Shown here: positions 9,901 to 47,284 of the stretch, in pieces
Position numbering within the stretch: position 1 is the first letter of the stretch
Layout: each line of letters opens with the position of its first letter
DNA from: Dipteris shenzhenensis
Taxonomy: Eukaryota
Assembly: GCA_047967505.1 (NCBI GenBank)
Contig: CM106538.1
Length of the DNA: 64,000 nt
Strand: one strand, 5' to 3'
Translations under genes and position numbers: made by a program
The notes under the pieces: model-generated
The model's input: only the letters and a program-made list of their open reading frames with translations
What the model was told of the DNA's origin: nothing
Databases searched by the model: none

Positions 9901-10460
9901 TGATCTAGAGAGGGTATGGTGTCTATGTGTCTGAGGAGGGAGGCTAGGTGGGCTGAGTAATCAGGTGAGAGGTTATGATCAAAGTGTATATCATGATATG
10001 TAGTGTAGTGCGGGGTGTGGCTGGGGGGGCTCGGGGCGCAAGGATATGAAAGAACAGGTAAGTGTGGTCGGCTCCTGGGGGTAATGGTGCAGTGCGGAAG
10101 TCAGTGATCTGTGGGGCTAAAGCAGGAGATCCCAGAATGTAGTCGACGGCACTGGCTCCTCCGCCATGTGGGAAACATGTGAAACCAGAGGAGGCAGGCC
10201 ACCGGTCTAGTCCATTGTAGATGACCAAATCATGTATACGTCCAAGGTCCAAAAGAGCCTGCCCATACGCAGTAACGGGAGCGCGACTGTTTGTCGAGGA
10301 GCGGGGGAAGCCCGAGTCCTCTGTGTCCATCTCAGGTAATAGGACCGGATCTGAGTGGAAGTCCAGGAGTGATGTCTGATGTGCACCTGTCCTTGCGTTG
10401 AAATCCCCAACTAGGAGGACCTCTCTGCGTCTGAGAGTGAGCATAGGCAGTAGGTAGCAG
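7000..10460 (-). mobile_element. RTE-X-like LINE copy 1, 5'-truncated and decayed (APE + RT + C-terminal Cys/His finger, (CTTT)n tail)
   Basis: APE: LLVGDFNARTG, SAVDYIL, GADH. RT: DFRKAFDTV, GVKQGCPLSPTLFGLYID, LLYADDVVL, VNLGKTKVM. C-terminus: ESEEHFAFRCPIYYAIR. Boundaries are approximate. Confidence 0.85.
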
Positions 10461-10735
10461 GAAGGAGGAGGGAGAGTAGATAGGATTAGATGTCACATCA
10501 AAAAGTACCACACAAATCATTAGGGGATGACTTATATAGACCCCCCTTCTTTCTCCTATCTTACCACCAATTTCCCTTCTTTTTCCGACCTATTTCCGAG
10601 CTATTTCCCACCTTCATTACAGCCATCCCTCCCCAAGGAATTTTGCTCTTAAAATTTTATATGTGGGCTGTTAAATAGGTGCAGCAAACAGCAAATAATA
10701 ATCAGCACGGTAGGAGATAGGGGTTGTCCTAGACA

Positions 10736-13324
10736 ATGCTCTCTGGTTGCCATGAGTTCTCATCCTGAGGAAGTCCCCGCCACTTGATAAGATACTCGGT
10801 GTAGACTTTGTTTCGGAGTATGTGAGCCCTGAAACCCATGATGCGCTGCAGAACATAGAGTATGTGGCCCTCTTCATCTGTAGGTGGTAGCTCAGGAAGG
10901 ACTTGGACATGCTGTCCGACATGTGGCTTCAGCAAAGACACATGGAAAACATTATGAATCTTGGAGGTCCTGGGTAGCTCCAACTCATATGCCACCTCAC
11001 CAACTTTGCGGATGATTTTGTAGGGACCGTAATACCTATGAGCAAGCTTCGTGTTGGTGTTACCTTTCAGCAAGGCATAACGGTTCTTATGGAGGTGTAA
11101 GTGCACATAATCCCCTTCTTCAAAAGACAGATACCTCCTGTGTTCATCCGCATACTTCTTCTGCTTGGCTTGGGCATCTTGCATATTCGTTTTAGCCAAT
11201 TGCAGAAGGGCATCCATACTCTCCAAGTCATTTCTTGCTTGCTGATTTTTCACAGCCATGTCTACAACTAAAGATGGCATACCCACTGTGCATCCATACA
11301 TAGCCTCGAACGGGCTCATACCAATAGAGATGTGCTTGGTACTGTTGTAACAAAATTCAGCAAGTGCCAACCACTTATCCCAAGACTTCTGTGTGTCATG
11401 ACAAAAATGCCTCAAATACTCCTCTAGCCATTTAAATGTTGACCCTTTCCGACTGTCCATCCATCTTAGGGTGGTAAGCAGTGCTAGGTGTAAGAGAAGT
11501 GCCCACTGCTGTAAATAACTTCTGCCAAAAGTGACCCATAAATTTTGCATCTCTGTCGCTGACAATCTCCCAAGAGAAGCCATGATGCTTAAAAACATGC
11601 TCGATGAACTGCCAAGCAACCTGTGATGCTGGATAACGGGTCTTAGTGGGTATGAAATGGGCCTGCTTTGTCATTCTGTCAACCACCACAAAAATGCTAT
11701 CCCATCCCCACTCTGTGGAAGGCAACCCTGTGATGAAATCCATAGCAATGTGAGTCCATTTGCCTTCTGGAATAGGTAATGGCTGCAAGAGACCCGCTGG
11801 TAACCGGCTGTCCACTTTATTCTGCTGGCAAGGCAAACACTCAGTGACAAATTTAACGACATCCCGCCACAAGCCATCCCAGATAAAGCTCTGTTTGACC
11901 TTTTCATATGTCGTAGTAATGCCCGCATGTCCTGCCATAGGAGATGAGTGCATTTCCTGTAAGACCAGCAGTTGATACTTTGAATCTAGCACCAAATAAA
12001 TTCTGTCCTTGCACCACAACAGCCCATTATGCAGTTTAAATTCAGCATGCCCCTGGCTCGATGGCCTCTGTAACTCCACAAATATGGAAGCTGCCTTAGA
12101 ATCCTGCATGTATTCTTCCTGAATACCATGAAACCACTCTTGATAGATGGTAGAAATGGCAGACAAACTGCAAGCCCACATACGGGATAAGGCATTTGCA
12201 ACCACATTTTCTTTTCCTTTCCTGTACTCAATGTCAAAATCATAAGAGTGAACCTTATCCAGCCACCTCTTCTGCTCTATTGACAAGTTGGGCTGTGTAA
12301 GGAAATACGTGAGTGTCCTATGATCTGTCTTAACCTTGATTTTGCTACCGTACAGGTAGTGGTGCCATTTTTCGAAAGCATGGAGGATAGCCAACATTTG
12401 CTTGCCTTAGCACAGCCCCTAATCTTTTGCCACTGGCATCTACCTCCATAATGAAAACACGTGAAAAATCAGGGCATACCAACACATGAGCATGAGTGAG
12501 GGCAAATTTCAGGTCTTCAAAGCTGCACTGTGCATCTGTAGACCACATAAAAGCATCATTCTTCAAAAGGTCTGTTAGAGGGGCTGCTCTCTTGCCAAAC
12601 TTGCGAATAAAGCGTCTGTAGAAGGAAGCAAGATGTAGAAATCCCCTCAACTGAGTAGGGTTGCGTGGTTGCGGCCAATCCTCAATACATTTTACCTTTG
12701 CAAGATCCACTCGAATGCCATCCTTGCTAACAATGTGACCAAGATACTCAACCTCTTGTGCCATAAAAGTGCATTTGCTGGCTTTAGCATAAAGCTGATG
12801 CAACCTCAAAATTTCCAGCACTTCTTGACATGTATGATGTGCTCCTACTTATCCTTGCTGTAAATGAGGATGTCATAAAAAATTTCCAGCACATATTTGA
12901 AAAGGAGAGGCTGCAAAATCTTGTTCATGAGTGCCTGGAAGGTAGCTGGTGCATTGGTCAATTCAAAAGGCATCACCTTGAACTCATACAGTCCCCTCTC
13001 CGTGCGAAAGGCTATCTTGTGCTCATCCCCAACTTTCATTCTAATCTGATGATAGCCGGACCTCAAATCAATCTTAGTGAAAAACTGATCACCCTTGAGT
13101 TCATCCAACAGGTCATCTATCCTGGGGATTGGAAACCTGTTCTTGATGGTGACCTTATTCAAGTCTCTATAGTCAATGCACATATGGTAAGAACTGTCCT
13201 TCTTCACCAGGAGCACAGGGGATGCAAAAGGAGAAGTGCTATGAGTGATGAAACTTTTCTGAAGTAAGTCCCTCACTTGAGTTGCCACTTCCTCCCGTTC
13301 TACCTTAGAGAGTCGGTATGGGGC
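10736..13324 (-). mobile_element. Ty3/Gypsy chromovirus pol remnant (RT-RH-INT-chromodomain), frameshifted
   Basis: [71 protein letters not shown] motif RYYGPYKI. Chromodomain EYLIKWRGLP...SW. Confidence 0.92.
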
Positions 13325-14030
13325 TGTTGGAAAGGTCACCTCCCCATCTGTAAGCCCCCAAATGAGGAGAGCGTGGGGGAGGGAGACCTAGGGCAGAAGA
13401 TGCCTAGAGAATAGAGAGAGAGGGGGCTGCCACATGGGCAGCACCTCACAAGAGAAGAAGGCTGCAACAGATGGCGCGAATTACAGTGCAGATGGCGGGG
13501 ACAGCAAGATCTGGAGAAGATACATTATATGGACTTTGAACCAAACCAGCTTCTCTCTCTCCTCTAATCTGGGATATGAACATGGGCTTTAGATGCGAAA
13601 ACAAGAAAATGCTCAATTGCAGGCTTTTTACTTGAATAAGCCACCTCTGGCATAACTCCTTCATGTGCTCTCATCTTTGTCCTGTTGAAACCGGATGATA
13701 TAGTCCACTGTCGAACGGCCCCATCCCAGTAAATCCTTCTCAGGATCATTACCGCCAACATTCTTCTTGCCATTTCCATAATTACTCGGTTCTTGCTCTC
13801 TGCCACATCATAACTGTCATTTGTCTGTTGATACACCTCTGCTTGTAGAATGCTATGAACTCCTTACCAACATACTCTCCAACTCTGTTAGTGCGAAGAG
13901 TCTTCAATTCGTGTCCTGCCCTTCCCTTGGGATTTTTTCATTCCATCCTATGAAGAGAGTCTTGATCTTGAAGTCCCTTCCCTGGTCGCCTCCTTTGTTG
14001 TCATTGTCATCAGATAAGGATGTGACTTAG
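13325..14030. mobile_element. Rearranged Copia debris: + strand LTR 5' fragment (13325-~13445) fused to minus-strand integrase/gag remnants
   Basis: 13325 TGTTGGAAAGGTCACCTCCCC matches the LTR family start. Minus ORF 13564-13836 has AESKNRVIMEMARRML and FASKAHVHIPD (Copia integrase). Confidence 0.6.
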
Positions 14031-18400: not shown

Positions 18401-18614
18401 TTCAACGTTTGCCCTCTTTTTGACCATTTTGTCCTTTGAGATTGTGGGGCTTTTGCCTTAGCTTCTATTTGCAGTTGAAAGCCTTGAGGCTATTTGGTCA
18501 ATGCACTTTTAGTTGTGCTTTTTACAATGGTTGGCAACAACAATGATTTGTTTGGCGTTCTCCGTGAAGATGATAAGTTGGATGGCACCAACTCCTATGT
18601 GGTCCTACCTTATG

Positions 18615-18650
18615 GGGTGCGTACATATTATGAGCGGAAACCCTTGAGCG
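18615..18650 (+). repeat. Left degenerate TIR of the MULE
   Basis: GGGTGCGTACATATTATGAGCGGAAACCCTTGAGCG versus the reverse complement of the right end, GGGGACGAGCATTTTCCGAGCAAAAACATACGAGCG. Confidence 0.75.
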
Positions 18651-19291
18651 GATTATCCGAGCAACACTCAATGGAGTTATACTTGAATGAATGTTTTTTT
18701 ATGGAATATCTTTTTTTAAAAACCTCAATCGACAGCTCTCATATTAGCTGCATGCATGTACCAAGGTACAAAGAGCCAAAGACATATACCCTTGGTTTGA
18801 ATGCTCTCATGATGCAATTGTGTGTATTATATTTGCACATTCATTGTATTTTCTATAAGCCTCAACATGCCAACAAAATTAGGACTAGTGGCATTGTTCA
18901 CTTTTAAGTAGATATGCTTATTAATACCTCCCCTCAAGCTTGTGAGATTGCCAACAATTATTTGTTTTTAGTCTTTCGAAACTCAATAGAGGGATGGATA
19001 TATATTTTAACAATCAAAGATGTAAACTATGAATTCACCTAAAAATTCAAACCTAAAAATTACAACTTGCCATACATTTCCAAAACAACTATGACATGTT
19101 CATATTATTAGGTCAAAGACCATTAAAATCACATGATTCAGAAGCCATAATCTATCAATCCATAAGAAGTTAAGGTTTGCATAAGAAGGTAATGGCTATC
19201 CATCCATAAGAAACCAGGTCTACATGAGATGATAATGAAAACATGAGAAATTAAGTTTTGCATCAATCCATAAAAAGCCAGGACATGCTCT

Positions 19292-22200
19292 CTAGACCTC
19301 ATCAGCCAAGTCATCTATGTAGTCTAGATGCCCATGATGCCTCTCCACCAACTCATAATCGAATGTGCTATCTCCTGCCATTTGGGTAGCCACATCTTCT
19401 GCATAGCAAGGCAGAACACTAAGCTCAATTAGTCAGTATCTAACCATGCTTAAATTATACACATAGATCAAATAAATTACTCACTAATCAAGAGGTGCAT
19501 CAAAGTCATAGTCTGTCTCCTCATCATCTATCATGAGGACTGCTTGATTCACACTTGAAGGCCCTGCCTCTGTGAAGTTGTCTCTAAGCATGCCTTCTAA
19601 GTATCCTGTGCAAATCTCTTTGTCATTGTCCACTGCCATGCATGGACGTCCTGAGTGAATTGCTGCTTTCATCCCAGGTGCTGTACCTGCACCAAGCTCA
19701 AGCACAGAGCCTCCAATCGGACACAACAACTCCATGAACATCAACATCATGGAGCTACTCTTCTCCAACCCACCACGCCACTGTCCACCCTTTCCCTCTT
19801 TTATGCACCGTACACTTGAAGGCAAGTAATGAGTGATGAAATAATTGTCCATGCACACCTTAAGGGATTGGGAAACTTTATTTGCCCTATCAAGATAGTG
19901 ATGTGCCTTCTTGCCAATCCTAGAGAACAATAGGATTTGAAAGGCAGTAATCTACATAAAACATAGATTGAAAAAGTTAATGGAGAATACTAAAATACGA
20001 ACAAACAAGAACATGACAATCATGTAAATAGCCAAATGACATACCTTGACACCAAAGCCAACATTATCCGCAACATCAATGCAATCTCCCGTCTCCACGA
20101 TCCATCTACATGTACTAACTATAAGATACCAATAGCTGAATGCAATTCACATAAACAGACATTATCAACTGTGATATATTGCTCACCTACAAGAAACCTC
20201 TAGTCTCATTTGTCTTGCCAAACGCTCAACGAATGAAGTGGATACAGGTGAACACATCACCAATGTCCATCCATAATCATCCATCACAGATGAAGCAATA
20301 GCAAGTGAGCATGAGATATGCTCCTCATTTAGAATGTTCCATCCAGGGATTCCACCCTTGATTCCACTCACTATTGATCCTGTAGGAAGGTCAATCAAGC
20401 AAAAATCCACACTCCATGCAGCATTTTTTCCATTGCGTGACTTCTTCATGCCACCAAGTTCATGGTAAAAATTTCTTATGATTTGAAAAGCCCCATCATA
20501 CTTGTATTGCTTAACTTCTTTTCCAAGTGATACATAATCATACTCCCAAACTTTGTAGTTCTCTTGTGAGATACGAGTTGCAAATGATGAGAAAGTGGAC
20601 AAAGGAACATAAACCATATCCGTATTACACACTTTCTTGCTAAGAAGAGACTCCTCCTTTCGTGGATCATTGTCTACAATAACAAAGAATCCTAAATTAA
20701 ATTTGTAGGAAGCTTCTAATCACTTTGAAACATGAAAGAAAGAGTTATAAGAAAATAGACCTGTGTTAGAAGTGCCCGTTGGTTTAGGTCTTCCACCTCG
20801 TTTGTTATTTGGAGTCACATGACTTGCCTTTTGCTTTTCTACTATTGCTTTTTGCTCCTCTTCAAGCCTCTTCTTTTGTGCCTCATCCATGTTGCCCGAC
20901 GAACCCGAGTTTGACTTGCACTCACCTTTTAAATGGCGATCATAAGTTTCCTTCTCTTCCTCGATACATGTTCCAGCCTTCATCTCGATCCACCAAGGGC
21001 AGTGCTTCCTTTCCCACTCCGTAAGCAATATATGACCATCCTTATGCTTATTCTCTCGAAAAATATGAGAGGTGTACATGCAATAAGTAGCAGGTGCAAG
21101 CATAGTCCAAGCCTTGCAAATGGATGGTACCACCTTAAGACTCTTATTTGCAGCCAGATAATGGAGATACCTAAATGATTTTTAGGATAATATAAGAGAA
21201 TGCAAGGTATTACAAAGATATCTTTCAATTGAAAACGAAAGCCAAAACGCACCTGTAAACCAATCGTCTGCTGGCATTTGTAAGATCAACTTGCTTAGAT
21301 GGAACAACAGCAACTGTCATCAATGAAGCAAAAGGCTCAAACAAAAAAGGCCTGTGTCTCACTATAATGCCATCAAAGTATTCCAGAATAGAAGGACTGT
21401 CTGGAAGTGTAGCTGCACCCTCAATGCTTGATGATTTCATCACTTGGTCAAGCAATCGCCCAGCATCTGCCAACACATGGTCCATCCATACTTCTTTTGC
21501 AAGCCAAGGTATGAAACCATGGTCAGTCATAGGCATCCCATAACTCTCCTTTAGATTGTCATCTGCACCAAGAAGAGAAAGAATAGATAGTTGCTTTGCC
21601 TTGGAACAGGTTGCAATTGATACTTGGTAAAGCTTCTCCAAAGTGATCTTCATTGATGTATCCTCAAATGGTAAATTCCAAAGGATATTAAACCACTCCT
21701 TGCCATGGGAAGTATTGACTATTGAAAGCATCTGCCAAATAGTAAAGTTTTAGAAGAGACTTTGATACACACAACAAACCATATATTAAGGTTTTCAAAG
21801 TACAAACTAAAAATTTGCAAGTTGTAACTATAGATTTATAATTTTCAAATCATATATTATGGTTTATGAGTTGTAAAATTAGAATTTGAAAACTATAAAT
21901 TCAAATTTGCAAACTATAAATTCAAATATCTGAGATATAAAACGTAGAATTTTGTGGACTACAAATTCAAATTTGTGATCTATAAATACAAAATTTGGTA
22001 AATTGAAAACTTACCCGTGTAATTTTTCTTCGATATGTTGCTCCCACAGTCTTTTTAATCTCATGAATCTTGGACTCTCTCTCATCCTTTGGCATGGAAG
22101 AATGCAATTTCTTGCATTGAGCCTCAAAATCTGATTTCCATTTCCCCTTTCAACATAAACAGATAATCTCATCATAATGTTATTGGAACACAAAGCAAAG

Positions 22201-23345
22201 TCACAAAAAAAGAAAATATATAAACTAAAGAACTAATACTTACAGCAAATACCATCCTCCCAAGAATAGTTTGGGTGAGGGGATACCACACCCTTCGTCC
22301 ACTTCCAATCTCTTTCTGTCTTGCCAACTCAATAGCTTTTTTCTCCTCCTCACTAAAATCCTGAGTAAAATATTGAGCATCACAAGATACGAGTGTGCTT
22401 GTGTGGTACAAATAATCCTTGAGATTAGTAACAACAATTGCATCTTCATTAAGCCTGCAACCATTGACTTAAATGGATCAAAATTGGTTTCATTTACAAG
22501 CACTTACCATCTCAATATAGAAAACATAAACAACAAGGCTTACAAGTTAAATCTTTGCAGAGCAGCAACAAGCTTAAGCTCATCCTTTGCTTCCGGTTCA
22601 ATAACTTGAGCTTGCACTCTAATGTGTCTAGACTTGATATTTGTGTAAAGCTCTTCTATGCTTTCCATCCAAGATGCTGTACGATGATTTCCTTCCCACA
22701 CGAAGAACATTTTGTTTGATAGAAAGCTCCATGGTGTGCCAATTATCTCTGATTCAAACTCATCATTAACTAAGCTCCAATTCTTGTCCCAACGTTCTCT
22801 TGTGACATCATCAACATCCTTCGAAGACCCATCAGGCATTTTGATAGATAGAATAAAAGATCCTTTTGTCGGAATGTATCCCTCTATTTCAAATGCTCTT
22901 TTCAAAATGGTCAAATCATTCCTAATTTGACGCACAACTGGGTTTATGAGACAACGACACAAGGGAATTCGAGGAGGTGGAATTTCTTTAGTTACTGTAA
23001 GAAGCTCTAAAATATCTGCACCTGAAGGTCTCTCAACACACTCTGGAATGATATCCTCCACATCATCTTTAACTCCTACTTTGTTGGATGGTTCATCTAT
23101 AGTTTTATCCTTGTTGTCCTCAGGATCCTCAATATCATTTTCAATGTCAACTTGCTCAAGCTCCTTCAGTTCATTCTTGACCTCTGACTCTTGCTTCTTC
23201 CTTTTGCCACCTTTCCTTGTGATAGGACTAGACACATCACGTTTCTTTCTCTACACATTTGAAGAACTCAATTACAAGATTTGCAAAAATGCAAAGGTGA
23301 AATGCAACTAGAAAAAGAAAAAGAATCCAAACTTACTGGAGGCAT
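19292..23345 (-). CDS. Cargo gene: ParB/Srx-like domain + beta-class amino-methyltransferase-like domain, ~1029 aa, 10 exons
   Basis: Model: complement join 23345-23337, 23250-22544, 22454-22244, 22146-22015, 21731-21253, 21170-20761, 20673-20187, 20105-20045, 19951-19485, 19418-19292. All introns are GT-AG, phases are consistent, 3090 nt, no stops. It starts MPPRKKR (NLS-like). ParB-like FFVWEGNHRTASW. MTase motif IV-like VDFCLIDLPTG, then motifs X-I-II EKSSSMMLMFMELLCPIGGSVLELGAGTAPGMKAAIHSGRPCMAVDND. The last exon is less certain; the alternative stop is at 19484. Confidence 0.8.
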
Positions 23346-23789
23346 TTGTTGCACAACTTTCAATAAGCTCACCTGCACAAGAAGAAAAACAAATAAATGA
23401 CATAGTGAAACCATCTTTGAAATGATTAAATGAAAAATGACAGAGTGTAACCATCTGAAAAATGACAGAGTGAAGGCACGGGAGAAATTCAGCTGAACAG
23501 AAGAAAGCATGGAAATTCAGACTGATTCCCAAAAAAGAAGCGTAAGGAAGCCAAGGCTATGGTGAGTGGAGAAGCGTAAGGAAGCCACAACAACAGAAGC
23601 GTAAGGAAGTGAGTGGAGAAGCGAAAAAAGAGAGACAAGAAGGACTAGCGTTGGCGAAAAAAGAACTAGCGTTGATTAATTTCTTTGCGTTGTTGATTAG
23701 CTTGGACAGAGAGACAGGTGAAAAGGAGCCTTGGTGGTTAGCGTGGATGGAGAGATAGGCGGAAGCGAGCCTTGGAGGGAGAGGGAAGG

Positions 23790-23950
23790 AGAGAGACAGG
23801 AAGGACGAGTGATGAAGGGAGCATGGAGAGAGAGGAAGGACCGAGTGATGAAGGGAGCATGGAGGAAGAGGAAGGACGAGTGATGAAGGGAGTATGGAGG
23901 GAGAGAGAGGAAGGACTGAGTGATGAAGAGGAAGAGGAAGGACTGAGTGA
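23790..23950. repeat. Purine-rich ~35-bp tandem repeat, probably in the cargo-gene 5' UTR
   Basis: Repeated GAGGAAGGAC(C/T)GAGTGATGAAGGGAG(C/T)ATGGAG units. Confidence 0.8.
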
Positions 23951-23952
23951 AC

Positions 23953-24004
23953 ACTAGTGAACACTAGTTTCGCTGGCGAAACTAGTTTCGCCAGCGAAAC
24001 TAGT
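23953..24004. repeat. Palindrome cluster 1 (two overlapping 24-bp palindromes) upstream of the cargo gene
   Basis: ACTAGTTTCGCTGGCGAAACTAGTTTCGCCAGCGAAACTAGT at 23963-24004. Confidence 0.95.
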
Positions 24005-25542
24005 GAACGAAGGGATTTATGAGACTTTGCACAGGACAAACGAGCGACAAGGGAGACTGGCTCGCCAACTCCCCCCCCCCAAAACTATCAAGACTTTATA
24101 AAAACTAGAGTCGAAGTGGCTGCCCGTCCTGATATCTTGAACGCTGGCGATGGATAGGCAGGGGTGAGTCACATGTTCAAGCAAGGCCATCTTCTCTCAG
24201 CGAACATTCCGACAAAACGTGACGAAGGTCAAAATGAAGGCGCAACTCAAGATCTGAGGCCAACGCGCGAACTATTCACGACTTTGATGATGAAGAGGAC
24301 TAAGATTGATGGCTTGATAAAAAATAAATCTGTGATGCTAAATCTGAGTGAAAGATCTCGCTTTTGATCGTTGCTACTTGTTGACGAATTCTCTGTTGTG
24401 GTATGGATCACCTGGGAATTTCTAGAGCAAGAGTTATCCTTCAACCTAGTTGCGCAATTTGAACGCCTGAAGCGCCTTGATTCATATTGGTGCCTCTACC
24501 TTTTGATTTGGTGCAAGTAATGCTTGCAAGTTGATTGCTTCTTACCAAGATTGCGAGACTTCGCCAAACAAACTCAAGCTCCCCCGAATCATGTTGGTCA
24601 GAGTCTACTACCTTCTTCTAGCACCTCATTCTGACAGAAGATGGGGCAGTGGTTGTAGCTCTCCGCTCTAACGTGATGCATGTGGGTCTCTAGTGTTTAG
24701 ATTCAAGTTTTGGCTCAGAGCTTGGAAGCAACATCGTGCTGTGTTTTAATGACCTTTTTCGAATAGAAATCTGAGAAGTTTCTCGAATTCATGAAGTATT
24801 GAAAGAATGCACTCGTGACTTGCACCATTTCTAGCGACAAAAGAACACAGGATTAACACTTGCAATGAAATAGAACGGGAACTTGCAGGCATTTGCGAAA
24901 TAGAAAAACACAGAAGCTTGCGAAACGTGCGCAGATTGCACGTTACAGAACCGGGAGAGACGCCACATCATCGTTCAGAAATACAGACAGAATGAACCTC
25001 CGTTGACGGAAATACAAACAGAATGAACCTCCGTTGACGGACGAAAATTTTGTACCACGGTTCGACTTTGTCTGATGTTGCGCTCTTTGGAATTTGGAGG
25101 AGAAGCTTGCACAAGAAGATGTTGCGCTCTTTCTGTGGCAGACAGGTAGCCAACTTCATGCGAGCCGTCTGCGTATTGCAGCTTAAACGAGCAAGACTTA
25201 GCCGAGTATTGAAGCCTGAGCTGTTCAAGCAGAGGGGGGACGTGCACGGCACCCGCTTGTAGGAGGAGGAGTGGGCGGGGCGAAAGAGCGGGCCACGGAG
25301 GTCACACGGTTTGCAACTAGGCGAGCAGCCGGTCCAACAGAGCTCGCTACCGGTGTCGAGGGTGAAGATGAGCCGACGAGGGCAGAGAGGTAGACTTCGG
25401 TGCCAGAATTGTCGAGGTAGGAGACATGACCTAAGATAGGAGAAGGGCGGTGGGAACGGCGAGGGCGTAGGCGTTTGCGAAGCGCGAGACCGGAGGAGAC
25501 GAAGTGATGGAGGGGGGAGTCGGGGGGGAAGGAGGCGAGAAC

Positions 25543-26075
25543 ACTAGTGAACACTAGTTTCGCTGGCGAAACTAGTGAACACTAGTCTAGTTTCGCCAGC
25601 GAAACTAGTGTTCACTAGTTTCGCTGGCGAAACTAGTTCGCCACTATTTTCAGTGGGAACTAGTTTCGCCAGCGAAACTAGTGAACACTAGTTTCGAAAC
25701 TAGTGTTCAGAACTAGTTTCGCCAGCGAAACTAGTTGTGAACACTAGTTTCGAAACTAGTGTTCACAACTAGTTTCGAGCGAAACTAGTGAACACTAGTT
25801 TCGAAACTAGTGTTCACAACTAGTTTCGCTGGCGAAACTAGTTGTGAACTTCACCACTGAAAATAGTGGCGAACTAGTTTCGCCAGCGAAACTAGTGAAC
25901 ACTAGTTTCGCTGGCGAAACTAGTGGCGGAAACTAGTGTTCACTCACTAGTGAACACTAGTTTCTACACTAGAAACTAGTGTAGAAACTAGTGTTCACTA
26001 GTGAGTGAACACTAGTTTCCGCCACTAGTTTCGCCAGCGAAACTAGTGTTCACTAGTTTCGCCAGCGAAACTAGT
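25543..26075. repeat. Palindrome cluster 2: dense array of ACTAGTTTCGC(CA/TG)GCGAAACTAGT forming nested long inverted repeats
   Basis: About 10 full copies plus short ACTAGTTTCGAAACTAGT variants. Perfect inverted arms at 25587-25656/25854-25923 and 25886-25972/25976-26062. Confidence 0.95.
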
Positions 26076-26351
26076 GAAGGCGTAGGCATTGGCCCGAAAA
26101 GCATTATGAAAACTAGCATCCCTAAGAATTTGACAACAGACACAAACAGATTACGGGCAAAACCGACCCGCCAAAATATTTATACTTCAGAGGAAATACC
26201 TGCAACGTGTAAACCTTCTCGCCATTTTCGTTAGTATAGTACATGAGATACATGATTGCAGACTGTTAGAAACAAAACGAAACATATTAGAGATAGCAAA
26301 CTAGAGAAAACTCAAACTAACGACGGCAGGAAACACAACAGATGCTCCTAA

Positions 26352-26892
26352 CGAAACTAGTGAATACTAGTTTAGCTGGCGAAACTAGTTCGCCACGCCA
26401 CTAGTTTCGCCAGCGAAACTAGTGAACACTAGTTTCGCTGGCGAAACTAGTGAACACTAGTTTCGCTGGCTAGTTTCGCCAGCGAAACTAGTGAAGGCGT
26501 AGGCGTAGGCGTGGGCGTAGGCGTAGGCATAGGTGTAGGCATGGACGTGGGCGTAGGCGTAGGCGTGAGCGTGTTCACCGAAACTAGGCGTGGACGTGGG
26601 CGTAGGCGTGGGCGTGGGCGTAGGCGTAGGCGTAGGCGTGTTCACTAGTTTCGCCAGCGAAACTAGTGCCAACGAAACTAGTCTTCTCTGCCTCCCCTTC
26701 TCTTTCTCTTTCTTTGCCTCTGCCTCTTCTTCTTCCTCTCCCTCTCCACCCTCCTTTCTTCCACTTCCGTTTCCCTTCGACCTTCCTCCTTCGCTTAGTT
26801 TCGTTTTTTCCGCCCCATTTAGTTTCGCCAGCGAAACTAAGTTTTGAACTCCAAATGAAATGGCCTCCAATAGTGTTTCGCTAGCGAAACTA
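26352..26892. repeat. Palindrome cluster 3 with interleaved (GGCGTR)n hexamer repeat, upstream of the transposase
   Basis: Copies at ~26367, 26400, 26428, 26470, 26644, 26820 and 26874. GGCGTA/GGCGTG runs span 26496-26640. Confidence 0.92.
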
Positions 26893-27378
26893 TGATGTCT
26901 TTACTTTTTCCTACAACCTTCAATCCATTAACCTTCTTGAGCTCTAATATTTCATTTGAACTAATGATGGCATCATGTCCATGATTTTTCTCTCGCAACT
27001 ATTCCATCCTTTGGTATGATTGTTTTTAGAGTAAAAATTATACTAGGGATACACACCCATTTAAGGCCTCTTCGGCAAAGATTATATGAGTAGATTCTTC
27101 TGAATTGGCGGTTACAAGGACTTGTGTGCTTGGGACGTGGCGGTGGCAATGAATGTGGTTATATTATGAGTTTGATCGTCTAGCTGATTTAGTATCAAAG
27201 AACAATGATCGTCTAGCTGAGTTGGTTAGTATAGAGTTCGAAAGGAGACAAGTGCGTGAACTACTGTTGCTCACATGCTTACTCACTTGTGCCTCGTTTG
27301 CTAGCAATAGATCTCAAAACTGGTAATGACTAATTTTCCTTTCACTTGAAGGAAGGGAGATTGTGTTCCACAAGCTCC

Positions 27379-30300
27379 ATGGATTTTGCAATTGTGTCCA
27401 ATGACAATAGGTCGAAGACACTGCAAGTTGCAACAACGAATGGTGTTGCACGCATTAGTAGGGAATACCTTCACTTAGCATTTGGACTTTCACCGAGCTC
27501 AATCTCTTTGCATCAACTACTTGATAGCAAGTGTGACGACTTGTCCTTTGAGGTTCCCTTTGTAGGTGAGGAGTCCTTGTTTCATCTTGACACTCAGTTT
27601 GGAACCACCTTCATTGTTAGAGGTGTAAAGCTTTTGACAGAAATCAGTAAGGAAGTGTCGGATAAAAAACAAGTAGATGAACAATCCGATAAGACCATGA
27701 GTTTGGTTCCTCTCTTGAAAAACCTTCCTGCAAGAAGTGCACTCAAAAAAGCTATGGACATTGTAACAACAATACAAGAAGTTGATGCACTTCCAGTAAA
27801 GTATGATGGCAATATTTTGTTTGAGCTTCCCGCTTCGGACCTCCCTAACCGTGCTGAGGGGACAGAAACCAAATACGACAGCCATGTTTGGACGGATGAT
27901 ATAACAAGTAATATGACAGGATTTGATGGTTTAGTTAGAATTCGAAGATGTGGTGGGCATCTACAATGCAAAAACATATTTTGTCCTTACTTGGAGAGAA
28001 CCAAAGAGGCCAATGAGAAGCATTGGCAAGGGAGACTTTCACGAGTGTGTCCTCAAAGATCATATGTTGGCGAAAATAGTACTCTTAAGTGTTTGCATTG
28101 TGGTGCTCGTCCTTTCTGCGAGCAAGAGTGCCCATGTAGGCTATTCTTATGTTACCCACACCCCAAGGGTGATACACAATTTAAGAGGTGTGTTATACAC
28201 TCAGGGTATCATTTGCATCCCGTTGGTGAAGGAAGTTCTAGAGGTGTTGTGAAGGAAGTTAAGGCTAGGTTGACTAAGCTCATACAAATAGATGGGATGG
28301 GAAGACCTAAAGCCTTGCAAAAAACATTAGCAAAGAAAATAATATTGGATGCCGTCATTCAAGATGATCCGAAAGCCATGAGTGATGCTGAATTGACATC
28401 CTTACTAGAGAAGATTACTCCAACTTTGGACAAGAGAAGGTATGTGCATACTTGTCCTTTTAATGTGATTAAAAGTACTCAAGTTTTTTTGAAAAATAAG
28501 TAATGGGATTTTGATGCTACATGTTCTTAACTGTAGGCTCGCACGTTGGAAAAGGGAGGCCCAAATTGAAAGTGGATCCTTTGCAGATGGTTATGATGCT
28601 CTTTTACAACTGAAAAGAAAGTGTGTATATGATTATTTTCAGAGCATGGTGTTCCCTGGACAACTTGAATTTTCTTCATTTGAAAGATGTCATGTTTTCA
28701 AGATGTCTACCAAGGGACATGGTAGTGGTGTTGATCTAGTGAACAAGATGAGGCCAGGTGGAGAGTTAGGATCGTGCTGGGTTTGCTTTGATTTTGTCAA
28801 ACGTATGCATGATTGGAATACAATGGCATGCCATGTTTACAACCCTTTTGTTCAAGAGCTACAGACTATTGCTATTGGGGATTTCAAGGTTGAGGATACA
28901 GAAGCCCAGATCCTTTTTTGGGAAATGTTAAATAGAGTCATGGAGAAGGAGGGATTCCCAAAGCCTCAATTTAAAGGGTTTATGGCTGATGAGGCACAAG
29001 CAAATTGGCGTGCAATTAGAATGGTATTCAATGGTGATGCCAATAAGGTGCTCAAAGAAAAAGAGAGATCTTGCTTATTCCATTGGGAGCAAAGCTTGGA
29101 AAACCATGCTAAGTTCCTTCCATCATTTGATCGTGAGGAGTTCAAGCTAAGGTGTAGACAGTGGAAGAATGCTCCATCTCAAGAAGCTGCAGACATCGAG
29201 TTGAAAAACCTCCGTTCGTGGTTCAAGCATCATGCACATAAGAAGGACATCTCCATTTTAGAAACATGGATTGTGTGGTGGCATGCAAGAGTGGCTCATT
29301 GGGGAGAATACATTCTCAAGGTAGGTCTATTGTTATTTCATTCACAACTTTATTGTTTTTTGATTATTGGAAACTAATCTATGTTGTGGCACAGGGCATG
29401 GAGGGATCTGACCAGTTTTTAGTTCCTAGAGCCAACCTTGCAGAGTCAGTCCATGGAAGTTGGTTGGCATCGAATGACGGAGTGAAATATGTCACACTAA
29501 AAAATGCTTGTGAGACAGATATGACGGGTGCTTTGCTGCAAACTGCAAGATACACAGAATATCTAAAGGGACTACACTTGGGTTGTGGACCTAGTTTGGA
29601 AAAGCTATCTCGAAGGCACTCTTATGGGGACATAGGGAGCAACTCATGCAAGTTCATTGATCTCAGTAATGAGGTGGCTAGCAAGGTGGATGCAACTATT
29701 GGAGGTCAAGATTGTATGGGTGATTTGAAGACTGTGAGAAGGAAGCGGTCAAAATCTTTCTCAGAAGCAGTGTATGCAAATGATTCACATCGTCCAGAAT
29801 ACCAGTATGTAAATCAGCCAAGAAAGAGAAAACAAAATACCACGCCAATCTTGAAAACAAATCAATATGTTGAAGAAGAGGTAGTACACAAGACTATGTG
29901 GGCTATAAGAAGAACTAATGCAAGTAGTGAGGTGAGGTGTCAAGGATACTTAGAGGACAAAGGAATCAAATGTCACAAATTGATAGATCACAAGGGTAGG
30001 ATGGGAAAGAGAGGTGTTCCTGCACCTAGCTTTTTTGGGAGAATCAACACCAAAGCAGGCATTCGAAGGCAATTGATTTGGTTTTGTGGGGATAACATGG
30101 ACCACACATGGACACCATCAAATTGCATTGAAGGAAAACCACCTGAGGTGCCGAGGGAGTGGCCTATTGAGAAAGGGACAAGCCTGGATGAGGAAGAAAT
30201 GAGGTTATTAGTAGCTGGAGGATTTAGATTAAAAAAGCAATGCACTAGGGCCAAATCTGCTGATTTAACAAGTAGACCGAGCACAAGGGATGGCATGGTT

Positions 30301-30660
30301 GTGGAATGGGTAACTGAGGTGACATGTGAAATGAGAACAAGGATAGCTAAGTCTATTTCCTTGGAATGTGTTGTTCACAGTGTTAATATAGTTGTCCCTA
30401 GAGAGCATGTGGAGTACCTAGTTTCCACTCCAGGATCACGTAGAAAAGGGAGCAAGTACAATGTTGTGGTTTCAGTGTTTCCATCATGCACATGTCTGGA
30501 CTTTATGGGCCATTCTCAAGGGCAAAACAGATATATCCCATGCAAACATCTGTATTACATTTATATGCAATACTTGGGTCTAGATGAGAAGATACACATG
30601 TTCATTCACCAATCTGCACTAAGTAGGCAAGAACTCTACCAAGCTCTACCTGCTTGCTAA
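27379..30660 (+). CDS. MULE-type DDE transposase with N-terminal Cys/His (GCM/WRKY-like) finger and C-terminal SWIM finger, ~1036 aa, 3 exons
   Basis: Model: join 27379-28439, 28537-29320, 29395-30660. GT-AG introns, 3111 nt, open. D1 WVCFDFVK, D2 FMADEAQA, CxxH motif CLFH, catalytic E in NLAESVH, SWIM CTCLDF...PCKHLYY. The start codon is inferred. Confidence 0.88.
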
Positions 30661-31089
30661 GAAGGGCGTTTATCTCTACTTGTGGTTATATTAAAGGAAC
30701 TTGCATAGGTGCATACAAATATTGTATGACCATTGTAGCTTGTGTTGACTTTTTGGGTGCATTTTGATAGTCATTTGCTTGACACAATATAGCTATATGT
30801 ATGTAAACAGTATTTTGTTGCCCACAGCTTCTTTAAGAGTTGTGTATGAACAATGTATTACTCACCACACTATAGTTTTTGGTGACCTTTTGGTGTGTTT
30901 GAATGGTCCTTTTATAGAAATCTATCCATGTCTCTCAATTCAATCTTCCTGAGATTCTAGACCATTTGACTATAAATTGTTTGGAAGAAATATTATTTTT
31001 ACTTTATTTTTTTGCACATGATGTTTATTGAAAAAATATATATATTGAAGGTATCAAATTAGACTTAACTAAAGGTCCACTGCTCAGAT

Positions 31090-31125
31090 CGCTCGTATGT
31101 TTTTGCTCGGAAAATGCTCGTCCCC
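31090..31125 (-). repeat. Right degenerate TIR of the MULE
   Basis: Inverted partner of 18615-18650. GAGC boxes fall at positions 18 and 32 from each end. Confidence 0.75.
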
Positions 31126-34100
31126 TACCTTATGAAGCATATTCTAGTTGCCAGAAACTTTTGGAATATTGTTTCAGGTGTTGATTTGAGGCCAGCCAAT
31201 GCTCAAGTGGCTACCCCTACTGCTGGCACTCCTCTAAGGGGGAATCTTCCTGACTCTTCTTCCTCTAGTACTCCTGTCACTACCACTCCTACTTAGGATC
31301 AGATCAGATGGGATTCCAGAGATGCAAATGCACACTCATGTATTGCCTTATCATGCAAGAGAATCATTATTCTACACATCCGGTCATGCAGGACAGCAAA
31401 GGATGCTTAGGATAAGCTAGCTTCTCTTTATCAAGTTCGCAATGAGGCACGGGTTGCATATTTGAGAAGACAATTGCAGGAACTCAATGGATACATATTT
31501 AACCAAGGTCAAGGACCTCATGGAGCAACTTGCAAATATTGATGAAATGGTGTCTAATTCTCAGCTTGTTAGTACTACATTAAATGGACTACCAGACACA
31601 TATCAAGGGTTTGCTACAACCCTTAGACCTGTAGCCAATGGAAATCCTGATCACTACTCATTTGATCAGTTAGTCACTTTGCTTTTGCGTGAAGAGCAAA
31701 GTCGTGCTAATAGGCAAGCTACTATTCCTGATCATGCATTTGCTTCACAACAGAAAGGAAAAGGCAAGGCTTCCAAGCCTATGGGCAAGCCTAAATATGT
31801 GCCTAACATTGGCAATTCCTCCAATGTATCTCAAAATACAGCAGATAAGTCCAAGAAGAAAAGATGCAAGTCGCAAGCTAGGGCATGAAATTTCAGAATG
31901 CAGGAAGCGCATTGCTTCGGAGAAGAAGAAAGCAGGATTGACAGTAAATGCCTCACATGCAATTGAATCCCATGAGCCAGCAGATGCTTCACATGCACAT
32001 GCTCTCCAGGATGATTGGGCATGGGCTGTCCATTGCTCTTTTGATCCCTCCAAAGTTGATGCATTCTTTTCTGCTAATGATGCTCAATCTTGGTATTTTG
32101 ATAATGGTGCTTCCAAGCACGTAACCTTTTGCAGACAGTTGTTTCATTCCTTGGCTAATGCACCTCGAGGGGGGACTGTCACATGTGCTAATAATGCTTC
32201 CTATGCTGTAAAAGGAATTGGCGATGTGCAGCTCACATCCATTTCAAGCCATCCTCTCACTTTGACAAATGTTCTTTTTGTGCTTGGAATTGAAGTCAAC
32301 TTGATTTCAATTTTAGCAATTGCCACTTCAGGTTTCAGAGTGATTTTTGATGGATGTAGATGCCTAGTACATGATCTTCGTGATGACAATGCCATAGTTC
32401 TCACTGGCACTTTGAAAAAGGGGCTTTATCACCTTGATTATCACTCATCTTTACTTTCTATTAAAGCATTTGCTATTTTAGATTCACAGCGTGCTGAAAC
32501 TGATGTTTGGCATGAGAGAATGGGTCATCTAAATTATAGAGCTCTTGCCAAGTTACATTCACAGGGCATGGAAAATGATGTACCTCAAACTCACACAGTT
32601 TCCAAACATGTGTGTGAGGGTTGTCTTTTGGGTAAGATGCATCGGTTTCCTTTTCAAAAGAATTGTCCAAAATTCTTACAAAGGAAATCGCAGCTAGTGC
32701 ACAGTGATATCTGTGGCCCAATGAGGACAAATGCCATTGGTGGGTACAAATATTTCATGACTCTAATTGATGACTTCACAAGATATTGCTGGGTATATGC
32801 TTTAAAAGCCAAATCTGAAGTGTTCTCATGCTTTCAGAGGTGGCTGAATATGGTTGAGAATGAATCAGGATGCAAGCTTGTCACCAAGCTTGTCACCCTC
32901 AACACAGATAGGGGGGGAGAGTATATGTCATAGGAGTTTGATGCATTTCTGTCTTCACGAGGCATTGTTCACTCATGCACTACTTCTTACACTCCTCAGT
33001 ATAATCCTATTCCTGAAAGAAAGAACAGGTCCACTATGGAGATGGCCAGATGCATGCTTAAGGCCAAGTCCTTGCCCAATAAATTTTGGCTTGATGCAGT
33101 GATGTGTGCCAACTATGTGTTGAATAGATCACCTACAAGGGCATTGAGGACTGTTACACCTTATGAAGCATGGAAAGGCAAGAAGCCTTCACTTTCACAC
33201 GAGAGTTTTTGGGTCTCTTGCATATGTACATGTACCATCTCAGCTGAGACATAAGCTTGATGATAAGGCAATCAAATGCATATTCATTGGTCACAGCCAG
33301 GAGAGCCGAGTGTATCGGTTTTACCAACTAAATATTGGGAAGATTATTGTTAGTAGAGATGTAATCTTTGCTGAACATTCAGCTTCTCCTCTTGTGGACT
33401 GCAAAGCAAAGCTAGAAGTTGACATGTTTGATGCCTTTGACTCTTGGTTACCTCTTCTCCCCTCAGGAGGGGACTTTGACCAGCAACATGAGGATTCTGC
33501 AGGCCCTCCAACAAGCAATGATCAGTCAACACCCCATGCTGATTTGCAGGTTCCTCTTCCAGCACAAAATGATCCCAATATTCATGATGCAGTGATTGAA
33601 GACAGAGCTGTCAATAGACCGCAAAGGCAAGTTCCCAGATGGCTTCTTGACACATTGAGGGGCAGCAAACAAGATCAACCTCTTGTTGCCCGGACAAGAT
33701 CAAGGAATAGACAGAGGCATGGTCACTTTCTTGAGTTTGCACTCCTTGCTACAGCTTGCAATGAAGATCCTTTGTGCCATAAAGATGCTTTTGACGGCAA
33801 AGAGTGGATGGATGCAATGAGAGCTGAGCTACAATCTATTGCTGAAAATGACACATGGGAATTAGTAGATCTACCTCCTGGCAAGCATGCCATTGGTACC
33901 CGGTGGGTCTACAAATTAAAAAGGAAATCTGATGGCAATATAGATCGACACAAAGCCCGTCTTGTTGCAAAAGGGTATGCCCAACAACAAGGCATTGAGT
34001 TTGAGGAGACCTTTGCTCCCACTTCTAGGATTACTACTATCAGATGTGTCATTGCCATTGCAGCCCATCACCATTGGCAAGTGCACCAGCTTAACATCAA

Positions 34101-38927: not shown

Positions 38928-41241
38928 TCACAGCCCCTCCGCCTCCCTAGCCCCTCCCCCTCCCTCAGCCCTTTCTGCTGTCGCACCAGCCCCCCCGCAC
39001 CCCCCTGTGCTATCGTGCCAACCCCCCTACTGTCACATCTCCTCTGCTGCCCGTCATCTCCCGTCCACCATCCTCTGCTGCACGTCATCTCCTCTGCTGT
39101 CGCTGCTGCAGTGCCTGCTGTTAGTGGGCAGGACTCTAGGCCTACCGCAGGCCTCTAGGCTTGGCCATAAAGCAGCTGAGTTGCTGCCTTAGGCCACGAG
39201 CAGCTGCGCCAGCTGTCCCAGCAGTAGCGAGCAGATGCGCCTGCTGCTCAGCTGCCCTCAAGCCTGCTGCTAGCCTTGGGCTAGTACTAGGTATCCCTGC
39301 AGCCCATTGGCCCTACTCGAGGCTCCCTCATGGCCTAGCTCCACAGCTCCGCATCAGCTACAGGCGACCTACAACACACCAAGATCAAGAAAGACCCACA
39401 ATCAAGGGGAAAAGGGGAGGGATCTTGTGCAAGAATGTAAGATCAATATTTCTCTACAAGGGGTTTTTTCTTCAAATCTACTTTGCACTATGCCTACACG
39501 AGGGTGTGTTGAGGACATTTGGGGAAAACAAGCCTTGGAATCTGCTCTGACAGCCCTCTCGAATGGGACAGCCCACAAAGGTACCACTGAAGTGCTCACA
39601 TGCCTCAACAAAATATGTCTCATGCTAATTGAAAAAATAGACAGCCTAGAGGCCACAAATGTGGCCTTATTGGCTGAAAAATCCCATGTTGACAAGACCC
39701 TTGCTGAGTTTAAAAAACAGGGAGGGAAAATACAAGAAGAATGGAGGAAAGAAAGGCCAAGAAAGAGGACTGGGAACAAGAAAAAACAGCATGGATTAAT
39801 GAGAAGGTAAAGCTCCAAGACAAGATGCATTTGTTGGGGTAAGTATGATCAAGGGCTTGCTCTATGGTGCATGTGTGCATCTAGGGGAGTCACATGTGTG
39901 TTTGTGTGTGTTGTAAAGGCACATCAAGTGCTATGATGTGTCTAGTGTGTGACCTAAGTGATGATGTAAGACAAAGGCAATCCCACTGATGTAGGGATTG
40001 ATTCCCACTGACGTAGGGGCTGATTGCCACTATGTAGGGAAGGTATTACCTTCTCCCCCTTTCTATAAAAGAGAGTCTTCTCTCTCACAATCAATATAGA
40101 GATTTCATTGTGCTCTCACACCTCTTGCAAGATGCATCTATTCTATCGTATGGGATCCTACAATTGGTATCAGAGCTTTAGGTTCTAGATCTAGCCTAGC
40201 CTAGCATTAGATGCTATCTCTAGCATAAACTACAAGTTTCTTCATCTTCTCCATTTTCGTCCTTCTTCCCAAAATCTTTGAGAGCTCTGTTCTCTGCCTA
40301 CAAACGACCATTGCCCAAACCCTCTGAGCTGCAAACTCCTCTTGTATGGGCGAACTTCCAGCTGCAAGCTTTTGGTGAAATTTCGACTGTATGTGAAATG
40401 CCAACACTCACACTCCCTGACGCCTTTTCTTGCAATGCGACTTGCTGGAGCAGCCATTCCAAAATTCCTCTGAGCCAAGCTTGCACAACAGTATGAGCTA
40501 GCTCCTGTCCAGATTTGAAGGGAAATGGTCCACCAGGGAGGGAGAAACAGCAAAAAAATCAGTCGACTTTCAAGCTGCTGGACGTGACGCGGCATTTCGC
40601 CTCTCCTTGCTGGTAGCCCTTCTCTGGTATAAGGCTCTTCTTCTTGCATAAAAATCCCCTTGAATAGAGCTATGAGCTGTGAGAATTGCACCCTCCAAGT
40701 TTTGGTCTCTGTTTTGGACAGTTTTGACAATGTTGTGAGTTTGATGCTACATTAGATGCTACTTTAGCATTTCTGATGTTTTAAAGTGTTGAATAGCTTC
40801 AGTACAACTATGGCTACAGCTTTGCTTTAAGTTGCTACACCTGGATTTGCTTGGAATGCTTTCATTTAGCCACCTCTATGAAGCATGCAAGTGAAAGCAT
40901 CATTTCCATTATGTTTTGTAGTATGGAATTTGGTTACAAGCCTTTGCTATTCTAAATGCTTGTATTTTGAAGCTCTTCAACTCTTTCTAGCCTTGTAAGA
41001 GAGTAGACATTGCCCATTTTGGGTTAGACCCTCTCATGGCTACCATCTTGAATATGGATAAGTTCAATGGTAAAGGCTTTCACACATGGCAGATGAAGAT
41101 TAAGTTTGCATTGATGAGGGAAAACCTCTGGGGGCTTGTCAAACCTGCTTCAACTACTTCTTCAACAGCCTCTAATGCTGGAGAATCCTCAGCTCCGACA
41201 CATCCGACAAGAGATCCTGCTAGAGAGGAGAAAGCTTAAGT

Positions 41242-47200: not shown

Positions 47201-47284
47201 GTACGGTGTACTTAGTGTACTTAACAAATAAAGTACTAAGTGTACTAACTGTACTTGGGTGGCCATAGAGCCTTTACCCCAACA
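41242..47284 (-). mobile_element. Full-length Ty1/Copia element (gag-pol with few disruptions) nested in the TR-GAG gag
   Basis: LTRs at 41242-41466 and 46968-47284. PBS reverse complement GCTCTGATACCA at 46954-46965. PPT at 41467-41478. TSD GCTTA/GCCTA. ORFs 45617-41514: CYYCGKKGH, WIIDSGAS, LVHTDVC, RSDNGEEY, LYVDDML, RNase H TTEAEY. Confidence 0.95.
41514..45617 (-). pseudogene. Copia gag-pol polyprotein, interrupted near 44874, 44445 and 42915
   Basis: Consecutive ORFs 44874-45617, 44440-44790, 42915-44450 and 41514-42914 follow the order gag-PR-INT-RT-RH. Confidence 0.9.

Follow-up and report, generated by a model that had tools for sequence, protein, structure and literature searches.

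A possible self-recognition array of palindromes beside a ParB-like gene in a Mutator-like element of a non-seed land plant

The 64,000-nucleotide stretch of Dipteris shenzhenensis DNA analyzed here (assembly GCA_047967505.1, contig CM106538.1; hereafter the window) contains an array of 24-bp palindromes in the common upstream region of two divergent genes. One of these genes encodes a transposase, and the other encodes an accessory or "cargo" protein whose N-terminal domain has a ParB-like fold. The array and the two genes are best explained as a Mutator-like DNA transposon of about 12.5 kb, present in many copies in a non-seed land plant, and the nearest named relatives come from ferns and one liverwort. 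We tentatively favor the reading that the element's own accessory protein uses the array as a self-recognition site, and would give this something approaching an even chance. What is new here is that a kind of system lately described from algae would be present on a Mutator-like carrier in a land plant.

The palindrome has two 11-bp arms around a 2-bp asymmetric center, ACTAGTTTCGC-CA/TG-GCGAAACTAGT, and the center is present both ways round (CCAG and CTGG), as the preliminary description of this DNA had reported. A search for ACTAGTTTCGNNNNCGAAACTAGT with at most one mismatch gave 17 sites, all in 23963-26667, and none in 100 shuffles, so that the palindrome noted earlier at this location is real; 14 of the sites are perfect, and those starting at 25586, 26366, and 26469 have one mismatch. 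The 16-bp core GTTTCGCYRGCGAAAC has 19 sites, adding two degenerate copies at 26822 and 26875. Four variants have a shortened spacer, namely three spacer-less 18-mers (ACTAGTTTCGAAACTAGT, at 25687, 25743, and 25794), a variant that had also been noted before, and one 22-mer at 25768. All copies and variants fall within 23963-26892, and the total runs from 17 to 23 according to the counting rule; the earlier figure of about 20 copies therefore holds only as an approximation that shifts with what is counted. Adjacent units had been said to be usually linked by GAAC or GTTC, and we found such 4-nt linkers at six junctions, together with a 7-nt linker of the GTTCACA type at four more. The half-site 8-mer AAACTAGT occurs 51 times in the window, with 48 occurrences inside 23963-26682; about two would be expected by chance, and none lies beyond the central region.

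The copies had been assigned to three clusters, but they form about five groups. The leftmost (23963-24004) consists of two overlapping perfect 24-mers, one with center CTGG and one with CCAG. The main array (25543-26076) holds ten 24-mers, the three 18-mers, the 22-mer, and related AAACTAGT palindromes. A right-hand group (26352-26492) has four 24-mers, two of them with one mismatch, and orphan half-sites; it is followed by a single perfect 24-mer with one additional half-site (26644-26682) and by the two degenerate copies, which retain only the 16-bp core (26818-26892). The main block as a whole (25540-26080) is a nested long palindrome, with 100-nt arms at 25873-25972 and 25976-26075, 70-nt arms at 25587-25656 and 25854-25923, and periods of 28, 56, and 107 bp. 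Folded as single-stranded DNA, it reaches -294 kcal/mol, as against -72 for shuffled sequence (z = -50).

The array lies about 710 bp from the first coding block of the cargo gene, the ATG of the transposase being some 490 bp downstream of it, and on either side a tract that is pyrimidine-rich on the sense strand of the neighboring gene separates the two. Toward the cargo gene this tract is made of GA-rich tandem repeats of 36-41 bp (23560-23950), CT-rich on the cargo sense strand; toward the transposase gene there is an (AGGCGT)x24 microsatellite with a CT-rich tract after it (26495-26800). The array is split by a 1.5-kb insert (24005-25542) that carries a TAXi_N (xylanase-inhibitor/aspartic-protease-like) gene fragment on the minus strand, in the open reading frame (ORF) 24968-25543 (E 8.9e-12). 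DNA contigs of the element family do not cover this insert, suggesting that it is specific to this copy or of low copy number. It looks like a Pack-MULE-style capture (a MULE being a Mutator-like element) or a template switch at the palindromes.

The base composition of the array differs from that of the genes. The bodies of both genes have a CpG observed/expected ratio of 0.28-0.29, whereas the arrays reach 1.13-1.56 and the 1.5-kb insert 0.93. Of the 19 palindrome units 14 are perfect, and nearly every unit retains two CpGs. This retention fits a motif that is under constraint or selection, or one that is shielded from cytosine methylation, and recent amplification of the array could have contributed as well. 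Dozens of RNA reads from run X17 match only 26200-26259 and 26587-26621 and run into unrelated sequence on both sides, so these two segments are common to expressed loci elsewhere, and the partial reads are no evidence for transcription of the array.

The cargo gene (19304-23232, minus strand) has several exons, of which the first (23232-22543) encodes the ParB/sulfiredoxin (Srx) fold and a GNHR motif. Later exons include "SVDFCLIDLPTG" in ORF 20183-20719 and "VLELGAGTAPG" in ORF 19484-19951. None of the open frames between 23250 and 19484 has a Pfam match. The gene is colinear with two fern proteins, P0005 (Adiantum nelumboides, 729 amino acids) and P0151 (A. capillus-veneris, 958 amino acids); colinearity with P0005 spans 23205 to 19487, at 33-70% identity over the aligned blocks. 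Exon 1 (ORF 22540-23250) found 228 representative clusters at E <= 0.001, and no Pfam family fell on the exon-1 domain in any of the 30 clusters scanned. When 20 clusters were looked up, 17 carried names, every one of which belongs either to one of two ferns of the genus Adiantum or to a liverwort, Riccia sorocarpa. No algal homologue of the cargo was returned by a word-limited profile search, which gave only fern proteins.

The claim that the protein next to the array is ParB-like is upheld at the level of fold. An AlphaFold2 model of 22543-23085 (minus strand), made with 149 sequences, has a predicted local distance difference test score (pLDDT) of 94, and in a structural search of the whole set of 48,161 representative chains just 13 reached Z >= 2, led by ParB-like PadC (Z 7.5) and KorB (7.2), then pNOB8 ParB-N (6.0) and sulfiredoxin (5.7). 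Six of these 13 chains are identified by title (ParB-like PadC, KorB, pNOB8 ParB-N, two sulfiredoxins, and Spo0J), and the SerK (serine kinase), SbnI, SspE, and BrxU chains among them we take to be ParB/Srx-fold proteins as well. A targeted structural alignment to 13 ParB, Noc, KorB, and PadC chains gave Z 6.7-8.1 and a root-mean-square deviation of 2.5-3.6 over 90-101 residues. The top Foldseek rows for the model are likewise ParB, Noc, and Srx, yet all have E >= 0.08 and none reaches E <= 0.001. At the sequence level, Pfam and PDB profile searches for a ParB-like domain came back empty. The G-N of the GNHR motif is almost invariant among the 149 relatives; the motif looks to us closer to the DGQHR/DndB type, and the DndB family of Pfam matches five of 150 family members, with a best E of 0.066.

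The C-terminal part of the protein was assessed through P0005, the model of which has a mean pLDDT of 65 and is confident at about residues 80-170, 240-390, and 460-620. Foldseek placed this model closest to N6-adenine DNA methyltransferases, namely CcrM (E 6.8e-5), M1.HpyAVI, M.BceJIV, and the MT-A70 family, with 18 matches at E <= 0.001, and residues 437-618 align to class-I S-adenosylmethionine-dependent methyltransferases at Z 8-9.1. The cargo ORFs of the window carry motifs matching the methyltransferase part of P0005, with D-L-P-T preceding ELGAGTG, which is presumably the permuted order of CcrM-type enzymes. The models thus suggest a layout with an N-terminal ParB/sulfiredoxin fold, a helical middle, and a C-terminal permuted domain resembling amino-methyltransferases. 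RNA reads matching the element region are few: run X17 gave 114, of which 88 match only partly, with low depth over 19.4-21.1 kb, and run X18 gave three, with no splice joints in either. At position 19683, within the exon bearing the ELGAGT motif, three of four RNA reads have a 4-nt insertion relative to the window and the DNA contigs; the expressed cargo copy may be a frameshifted variant.

On the other side of the array, the transposase gene (27379-30648, plus strand) has three coding blocks, 27379-28440, 28535-29338, and 29380-30648. All three are free of stops, giving an apparently intact protein of about 1,040 amino acids that is colinear with homologues of 650-1050 amino acids and shares with them a Cys/His-rich N-terminal region. 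The clusters of the atlas nearest to its core are MULE families (scores 0.93 and 0.91). The MULE family of Pfam gave no match at E <= 10 with the window ORFs, or at E <= 1 with the 17 rows of an alignment of 14 homologues and the three ORFs of the window, and a PDB profile search with the transposase returned matches at chance level only. A motif in the window, "MADEAQANW...CLFHW", resembles by eye what we take to be the D...CxxH signature of MULE transposases. Toward the C terminus a CxC...CxH pattern like that of a SWIM finger is visible; four of the 17 rows match the SWIM family, the best at E 6.8e-5, and the window ORF does so at E 0.044, which does not pass the Pfam cutoff.

To place the array among relatives of the element, we considered a scan of metagenome contigs that gave 80 loci of the ParB-like gene, falling into 37 lineages at 80% identity. 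Palindrome arrays adjoin the ParB-like gene, here a distant relative at 27-35% identity, in three of the 37 lineages. In the group of L006, L008, L020, L035, and L013, 4-12 copies of CTCTCGG-NN-CCGAGAG flank the exon on either side. Locus L007 has seven palindromes of the TTCGGCGCCGAA type (TTCG-N4-CGAA), in three different repeat contexts, and its array stops 250 bp upstream of the gene. In L057 and L058, at least three copies of CAACTTTC-N6-GAAAGTTG lie 2.2 kb downstream; the ORFs of L057 hold only a copia fragment, which assigns the locus to no transposase type. The core TCG-S-NN-S-CGA is common to the window, L007, and the L006 group, and the arms are otherwise different from lineage to lineage. 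The 625 kb of loci contain this core 66 times and shuffled versions of them 2-12 times, and 18 of its 19 occurrences in the window are inside the array. Under a criterion of three copies, a palindrome family was found in eight of the 64 loci of at least 2 kb and in none of 64 shuffled loci. The recurrence of arrays beside ParB-like genes lends real but limited support to an association between the two. A looser shared rule, TC-N6-GA, which fits the window, L007, the L006 group, and L057, was considered and rejected; the tighter TCGSNNSCGA fails in two of three L057 units. Closely related to the L006 group, L011 (1-800 and 3169-4180) and L012 have 85-bp tandem units that carry CTCTAGATTCCGAGAG, in which one palindrome arm is altered, so that here the array persists with a decayed palindrome.

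Several observations tie the array and its flanking genes into one element. Over 18500-31500, DNA contigs from both of the DNA runs examined, which come from different studies, cover 18.5-23.5 and 26.8-31.1 kb; they diverge by 1-2% from the window and have high word depth, from which we take the family to be multi-copy, although depth is not a copy number. In two of the metagenome loci, L022 and L053, a homologue of this transposase is divergently oriented from the ParB-like gene, and this pairing, together with the contigs over both gene halves, indicates that both genes belong to one type of element. The contigs leave 23.7-26.3 kb nearly empty, in part because contigs built from short words cannot span the repeat array, the rest of the gap being the 1.5-kb insert. 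One family contig carries the motif core where the copy at 26818 sits (with a loose end at 26840), and another links 26492 to 23978, so the array is differently arranged in other copies. No terminal inverted repeats of the element were found in the window, a likeness to the VANDAL elements, which are without long terminal inverted repeats. The best candidate for a target-site duplication is weak: an 11-bp direct match, CCTACCTTATG, at 18604-18614 on the left and 31124-31134 on the right (E 0.34). The family contigs stop at 31097-31125, in agreement with the right-hand candidate.

If the array is indeed a self-recognition site, each 24-mer would be bound by a dimer of an element-encoded protein, for which the accessory protein is the best candidate. 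Once docked on the array, the accessory protein might mark or protect its own element, through DNA modification or anti-silencing, and this would keep both promoters active. Such a mode of action would resemble the way in which VANC acts on VANDAL elements, and also the role suggested for the ParB-type accessory proteins of algal giant transposons. Here we infer that some protein binds the array, which protein it is, and what follows from the binding. In a more elaborate version, which we consider improbable, the protein would be a ParB-type nucleotide-switch clamp, of which a dimer would be loaded at the array and, after closing, move outward as ParB does in bacteria, spreading the methyltransferase-like domain across the element; it would write a "self" mark or block silencing, and land-plant chromatin would then have invented a parS-like loading site anew.

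A number of points weigh against assigning the array to the accessory protein. The 18- and 22-bp variants alter the half-site spacing, which a rigid dimer should not tolerate, and the transposase, with a Cys-rich N-terminal domain of its own, is equally close to the array. There is no array in 34 of the 37 lineages, including L022 and L053, which have both genes, and the loose criterion of at least three copies also yields a small family in one of 21 control pieces of 3 kb from the window. The cargo protein has no identified DNA-binding domain, its middle region having no atlas match at or above 0.9, and the one recognizable ParB part, the N-terminal nucleotide-binding domain, is not what recognizes parS in bacterial proteins. 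Neither ParBc nor N6_N4_Mtase of Pfam gave a significant match (N6_N4_Mtase matches one of 150 members, at E 0.0098). The methyltransferase fold was modeled on the fern homologue P0005, at the modest pLDDT given above, and not on the protein of the window itself. In addition, the putative catalytic motif departs from (D/N/S)PP(Y/F/W): the window has D-L-P-T, and three long relatives from ferns have D-[FV]-P-[TFI]. With the motif so altered, methyltransferase activity is doubtful.

We considered the possibility that the palindromes are instead internal sites of the element's transposase, recognized by its Cys-rich N terminus and serving as an enhancer or anti-silencer of both promoters, not as cleavage sites. 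The transposase is adjacent and apparently intact, with no stops in its three blocks, its Cys/His-rich N-terminal region is conserved in homologues, and the available portion of a 2026 preprint describes sequence-specific activation of cognate copies by the AtMu1 Mutator transposase (10.64898/2026.08.24.746577). We nevertheless think this alternative rather unlikely, as the half-site map of the window shows no AAACTAGT close to the element's presumed ends, which a transposase has to bind; that the palindromes lie away from these ends weakens a role as terminal transposase sites. L022 and L053, moreover, have the transposase homologue and no array, and arrays are found beside ParB-like genes on contigs where no transposase homologue was found, although the latter is a weak point, the contigs being short. 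Alternatively, the array might have no dedicated protein at all and be a self-propagating palindromic satellite, produced by hairpin slippage or template switching, which if transcribed would yield no more than long hairpin RNA and small RNAs. Its near-complete self-folding (-294 kcal/mol, z = -50), the nested long inverted repeats with periods of 28, 56, and 107 bp, the foreign 1.5-kb piece captured within it, the 18- and 22-bp units, which look like slippage products, and the absence of arrays from most related lineages are all as a satellite would have it. A satellite by itself would not, however, account for 14 of 19 units being perfect and keeping their CpGs while the genes are strongly CpG-depleted, for the recurrence of palindromes with one core beside members of the same gene family at only 27-35% identity, or for a placement between two promoters that the published algal cases share, and we regard this explanation as unlikely.

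The two other alternatives bring in proteins known from elsewhere. Dimers of a host transcription factor, for example an E2F-like one, could bind sites that were amplified to drive both genes, since the array occupies the upstream region that the two divergent genes have in common. The consensus for E2F-type sites is TTTSSCGC, which the core of the palindrome resembles, and one L007 unit reads TTTGGCGCC. Even so, the 24-bp unit with its 11-bp arms is far longer than such host sites, the window core fits the plant E2F consensus at only seven of eight positions by eye, and the arms are wholly different between lineages when a host site should stay constant; a host factor therefore seems to us quite improbable. 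Readings of the units as heat-shock elements or E2F sites were set aside, because spacing and consensus are unsuitable. Least probable of all, and in our estimation very improbable, is a true parS-type centromere, homologous with bacterial ParABS, on which the ParB-like protein would load and then partition or cluster extrachromosomal or chromosomal copies. The neighboring gene does encode a ParB-fold domain, with Z 7.2-8.1 to the N-terminal folds of the bacterial ParB-parS, KorB, and Noc systems, and like them has clustered palindromes beside it; parS, a 16-bp site whose arms have no added spacer, has the half-site GTTTCAC, which the GTTTCGC of the palindrome resembles, and the GTTTC...GAAAC arms of bacterial parS are superficially similar to those of the window. 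Yet the geometry of the window motif is GTTTCGC-CA-GCGAAAC, with N6 separating TTTC from GAAA, so the spacing given in the preliminary description (N6 and not the N4 of parS) was correct. A helix-turn-helix of the ParB type was not found, the full-length P0005 model giving only methyltransferase matches, and no C-terminal dimerization domain was identified. A Pfam scan of ORFs of at least 130 amino acids in 18.4-31 kb revealed no ParA/CbiA-type family that could serve as a partner, neither the set of 185,579 prokaryotic species genomes nor the viral collection contains an exact copy of the 24-mer, the relatives carry unrelated arms, and the context is that of a eukaryotic transposon. An N-terminal ParB domain alone, with no recognized helix-turn-helix or ParA, next to sites with a different spacing and differing arms, does not support homology with parS, and the likeness is best treated as convergence or coincidence, the latter a possibility already raised when the motif was first described.

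The self-recognition reading draws on several published systems that share parts of this arrangement. In the red-algal giant Plavaka transposons, the accessory gene PAG3, with a ParB N terminus and a 2-oxoglutarate (2OG) oxygenase, adjoins tandem inverted-repeat arrays, and in the available part of their text the authors of the Bostrychia moritziana genome propose that PAG3 binds and modifies its own element (10.1101/2025.02.11.637652). As described there, Plavaka and the window element have in common a transposon-borne accessory gene with a ParB-like N terminus and adjacent inverted-repeat arrays; the window element differs in its land-plant host, its Mutator-like rather than EnSpm/Plavaka carrier, its methyltransferase fold in place of the 2OG oxygenase, and its single accessory gene where Plavaka has a three-gene cassette, and the likeness is by description only. 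Sola1-1 of Ectocarpus has, according to the section of the source at hand, a gene combining ParB-like and DNA-methyltransferase parts on the strand opposite the transposase (PMC12477816). Both the combination of ParB-like and N6A/N4C-type DNA methyltransferase logic and the opposed strands would apply to the window, whereas the superfamily and host are other, the section on Sola1-1 mentions no repeat array, and the window family has no Pfam match and an altered D-x-P-x motif. Among the features of this algal PAG3/ParB-methyltransferase class, the window element appears, on the basis of the models, to combine a ParB-like and a DNA-modifying fold in one protein, borne on a transposon beside the transposase; an array is present in the window and, among the relatives, in three of the 37 lineages.

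In Arabidopsis, VANC of the VANDAL elements binds motifs, often tandemly repeated, in non-coding parts of the element, according to the accessible part of the report (PMC5735166). There, as in the window, a Mutator-like element has an accessory protein and short motifs that are repeated in non-coding parts and differ between relatives; on that partial description, the ParB/Srx and methyltransferase-like folds of the window cargo, and motifs that are long perfect palindromes, set the two apart. Iyer and colleagues described adenine methylases linked with a helix-turn-helix of the ParB kind in chlorophytes and chytrids, as well as phage ParB-terminase loci (PMC4738411). The cargo would share with those methylases a ParB-type module and an amino-methyltransferase of prokaryotic mobile-element origin, but the eukaryotic fusions, in the excerpted text, use the ParB-type helix-turn-helix with Dam-type enzymes, while the window has a ParB/Srx N terminus and a CcrM-like permuted fold. 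The phage versions are presented in the same excerpts as linked within ParB-terminase loci and not as fusions (PMC4738411).

If the cargo does bind the array, transposons of ferns and liverworts would recognize, and perhaps chemically mark, their own DNA by means of a prokaryotic-type module. Self-marking by ParB-type transposon cargo has so far only been proposed, and for algae, and the literature searched (ParB combined with transposon, fern, bryophyte, or methyltransferase) contained no land-plant report of ParB-like transposon cargo. The element is an unusually clean test object: its 24-bp palindrome is perfect and comes with natural variants of the spacer, its transposase is apparently intact, and the first domain of its cargo protein is modeled with very high confidence. 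The exon-1 family, with its 228 clusters and no Pfam model, is moreover an unannotated domain family worth describing.

The remainder of the window is eukaryotic in content, with many plant-type retroelements (copia, chromodomain gypsy, and fragments of long interspersed nuclear elements, or LINEs). Frames for a LINE-type reverse transcriptase and endonuclease (8283-10492, minus strand) adjoin a chromodomain gypsy pol (10729-13387, minus strand), and the region 8283-13387 consists of retroelement fragments nested together. At 57906-58015, within 110 bp, there are three occurrences of another small palindrome family, GGCTGCC-N5-GGCAGC, whose sequence is unrelated to that of the main motif. At 39830-48542 there is a copia-type long terminal repeat (LTR) retrotransposon, with long gag, integrase, and reverse transcriptase frames on the minus strand (41514-45668); its 331-bp LTRs (39830-40160 and 48212-48542) are 98.8% identical, and the element is probably young.

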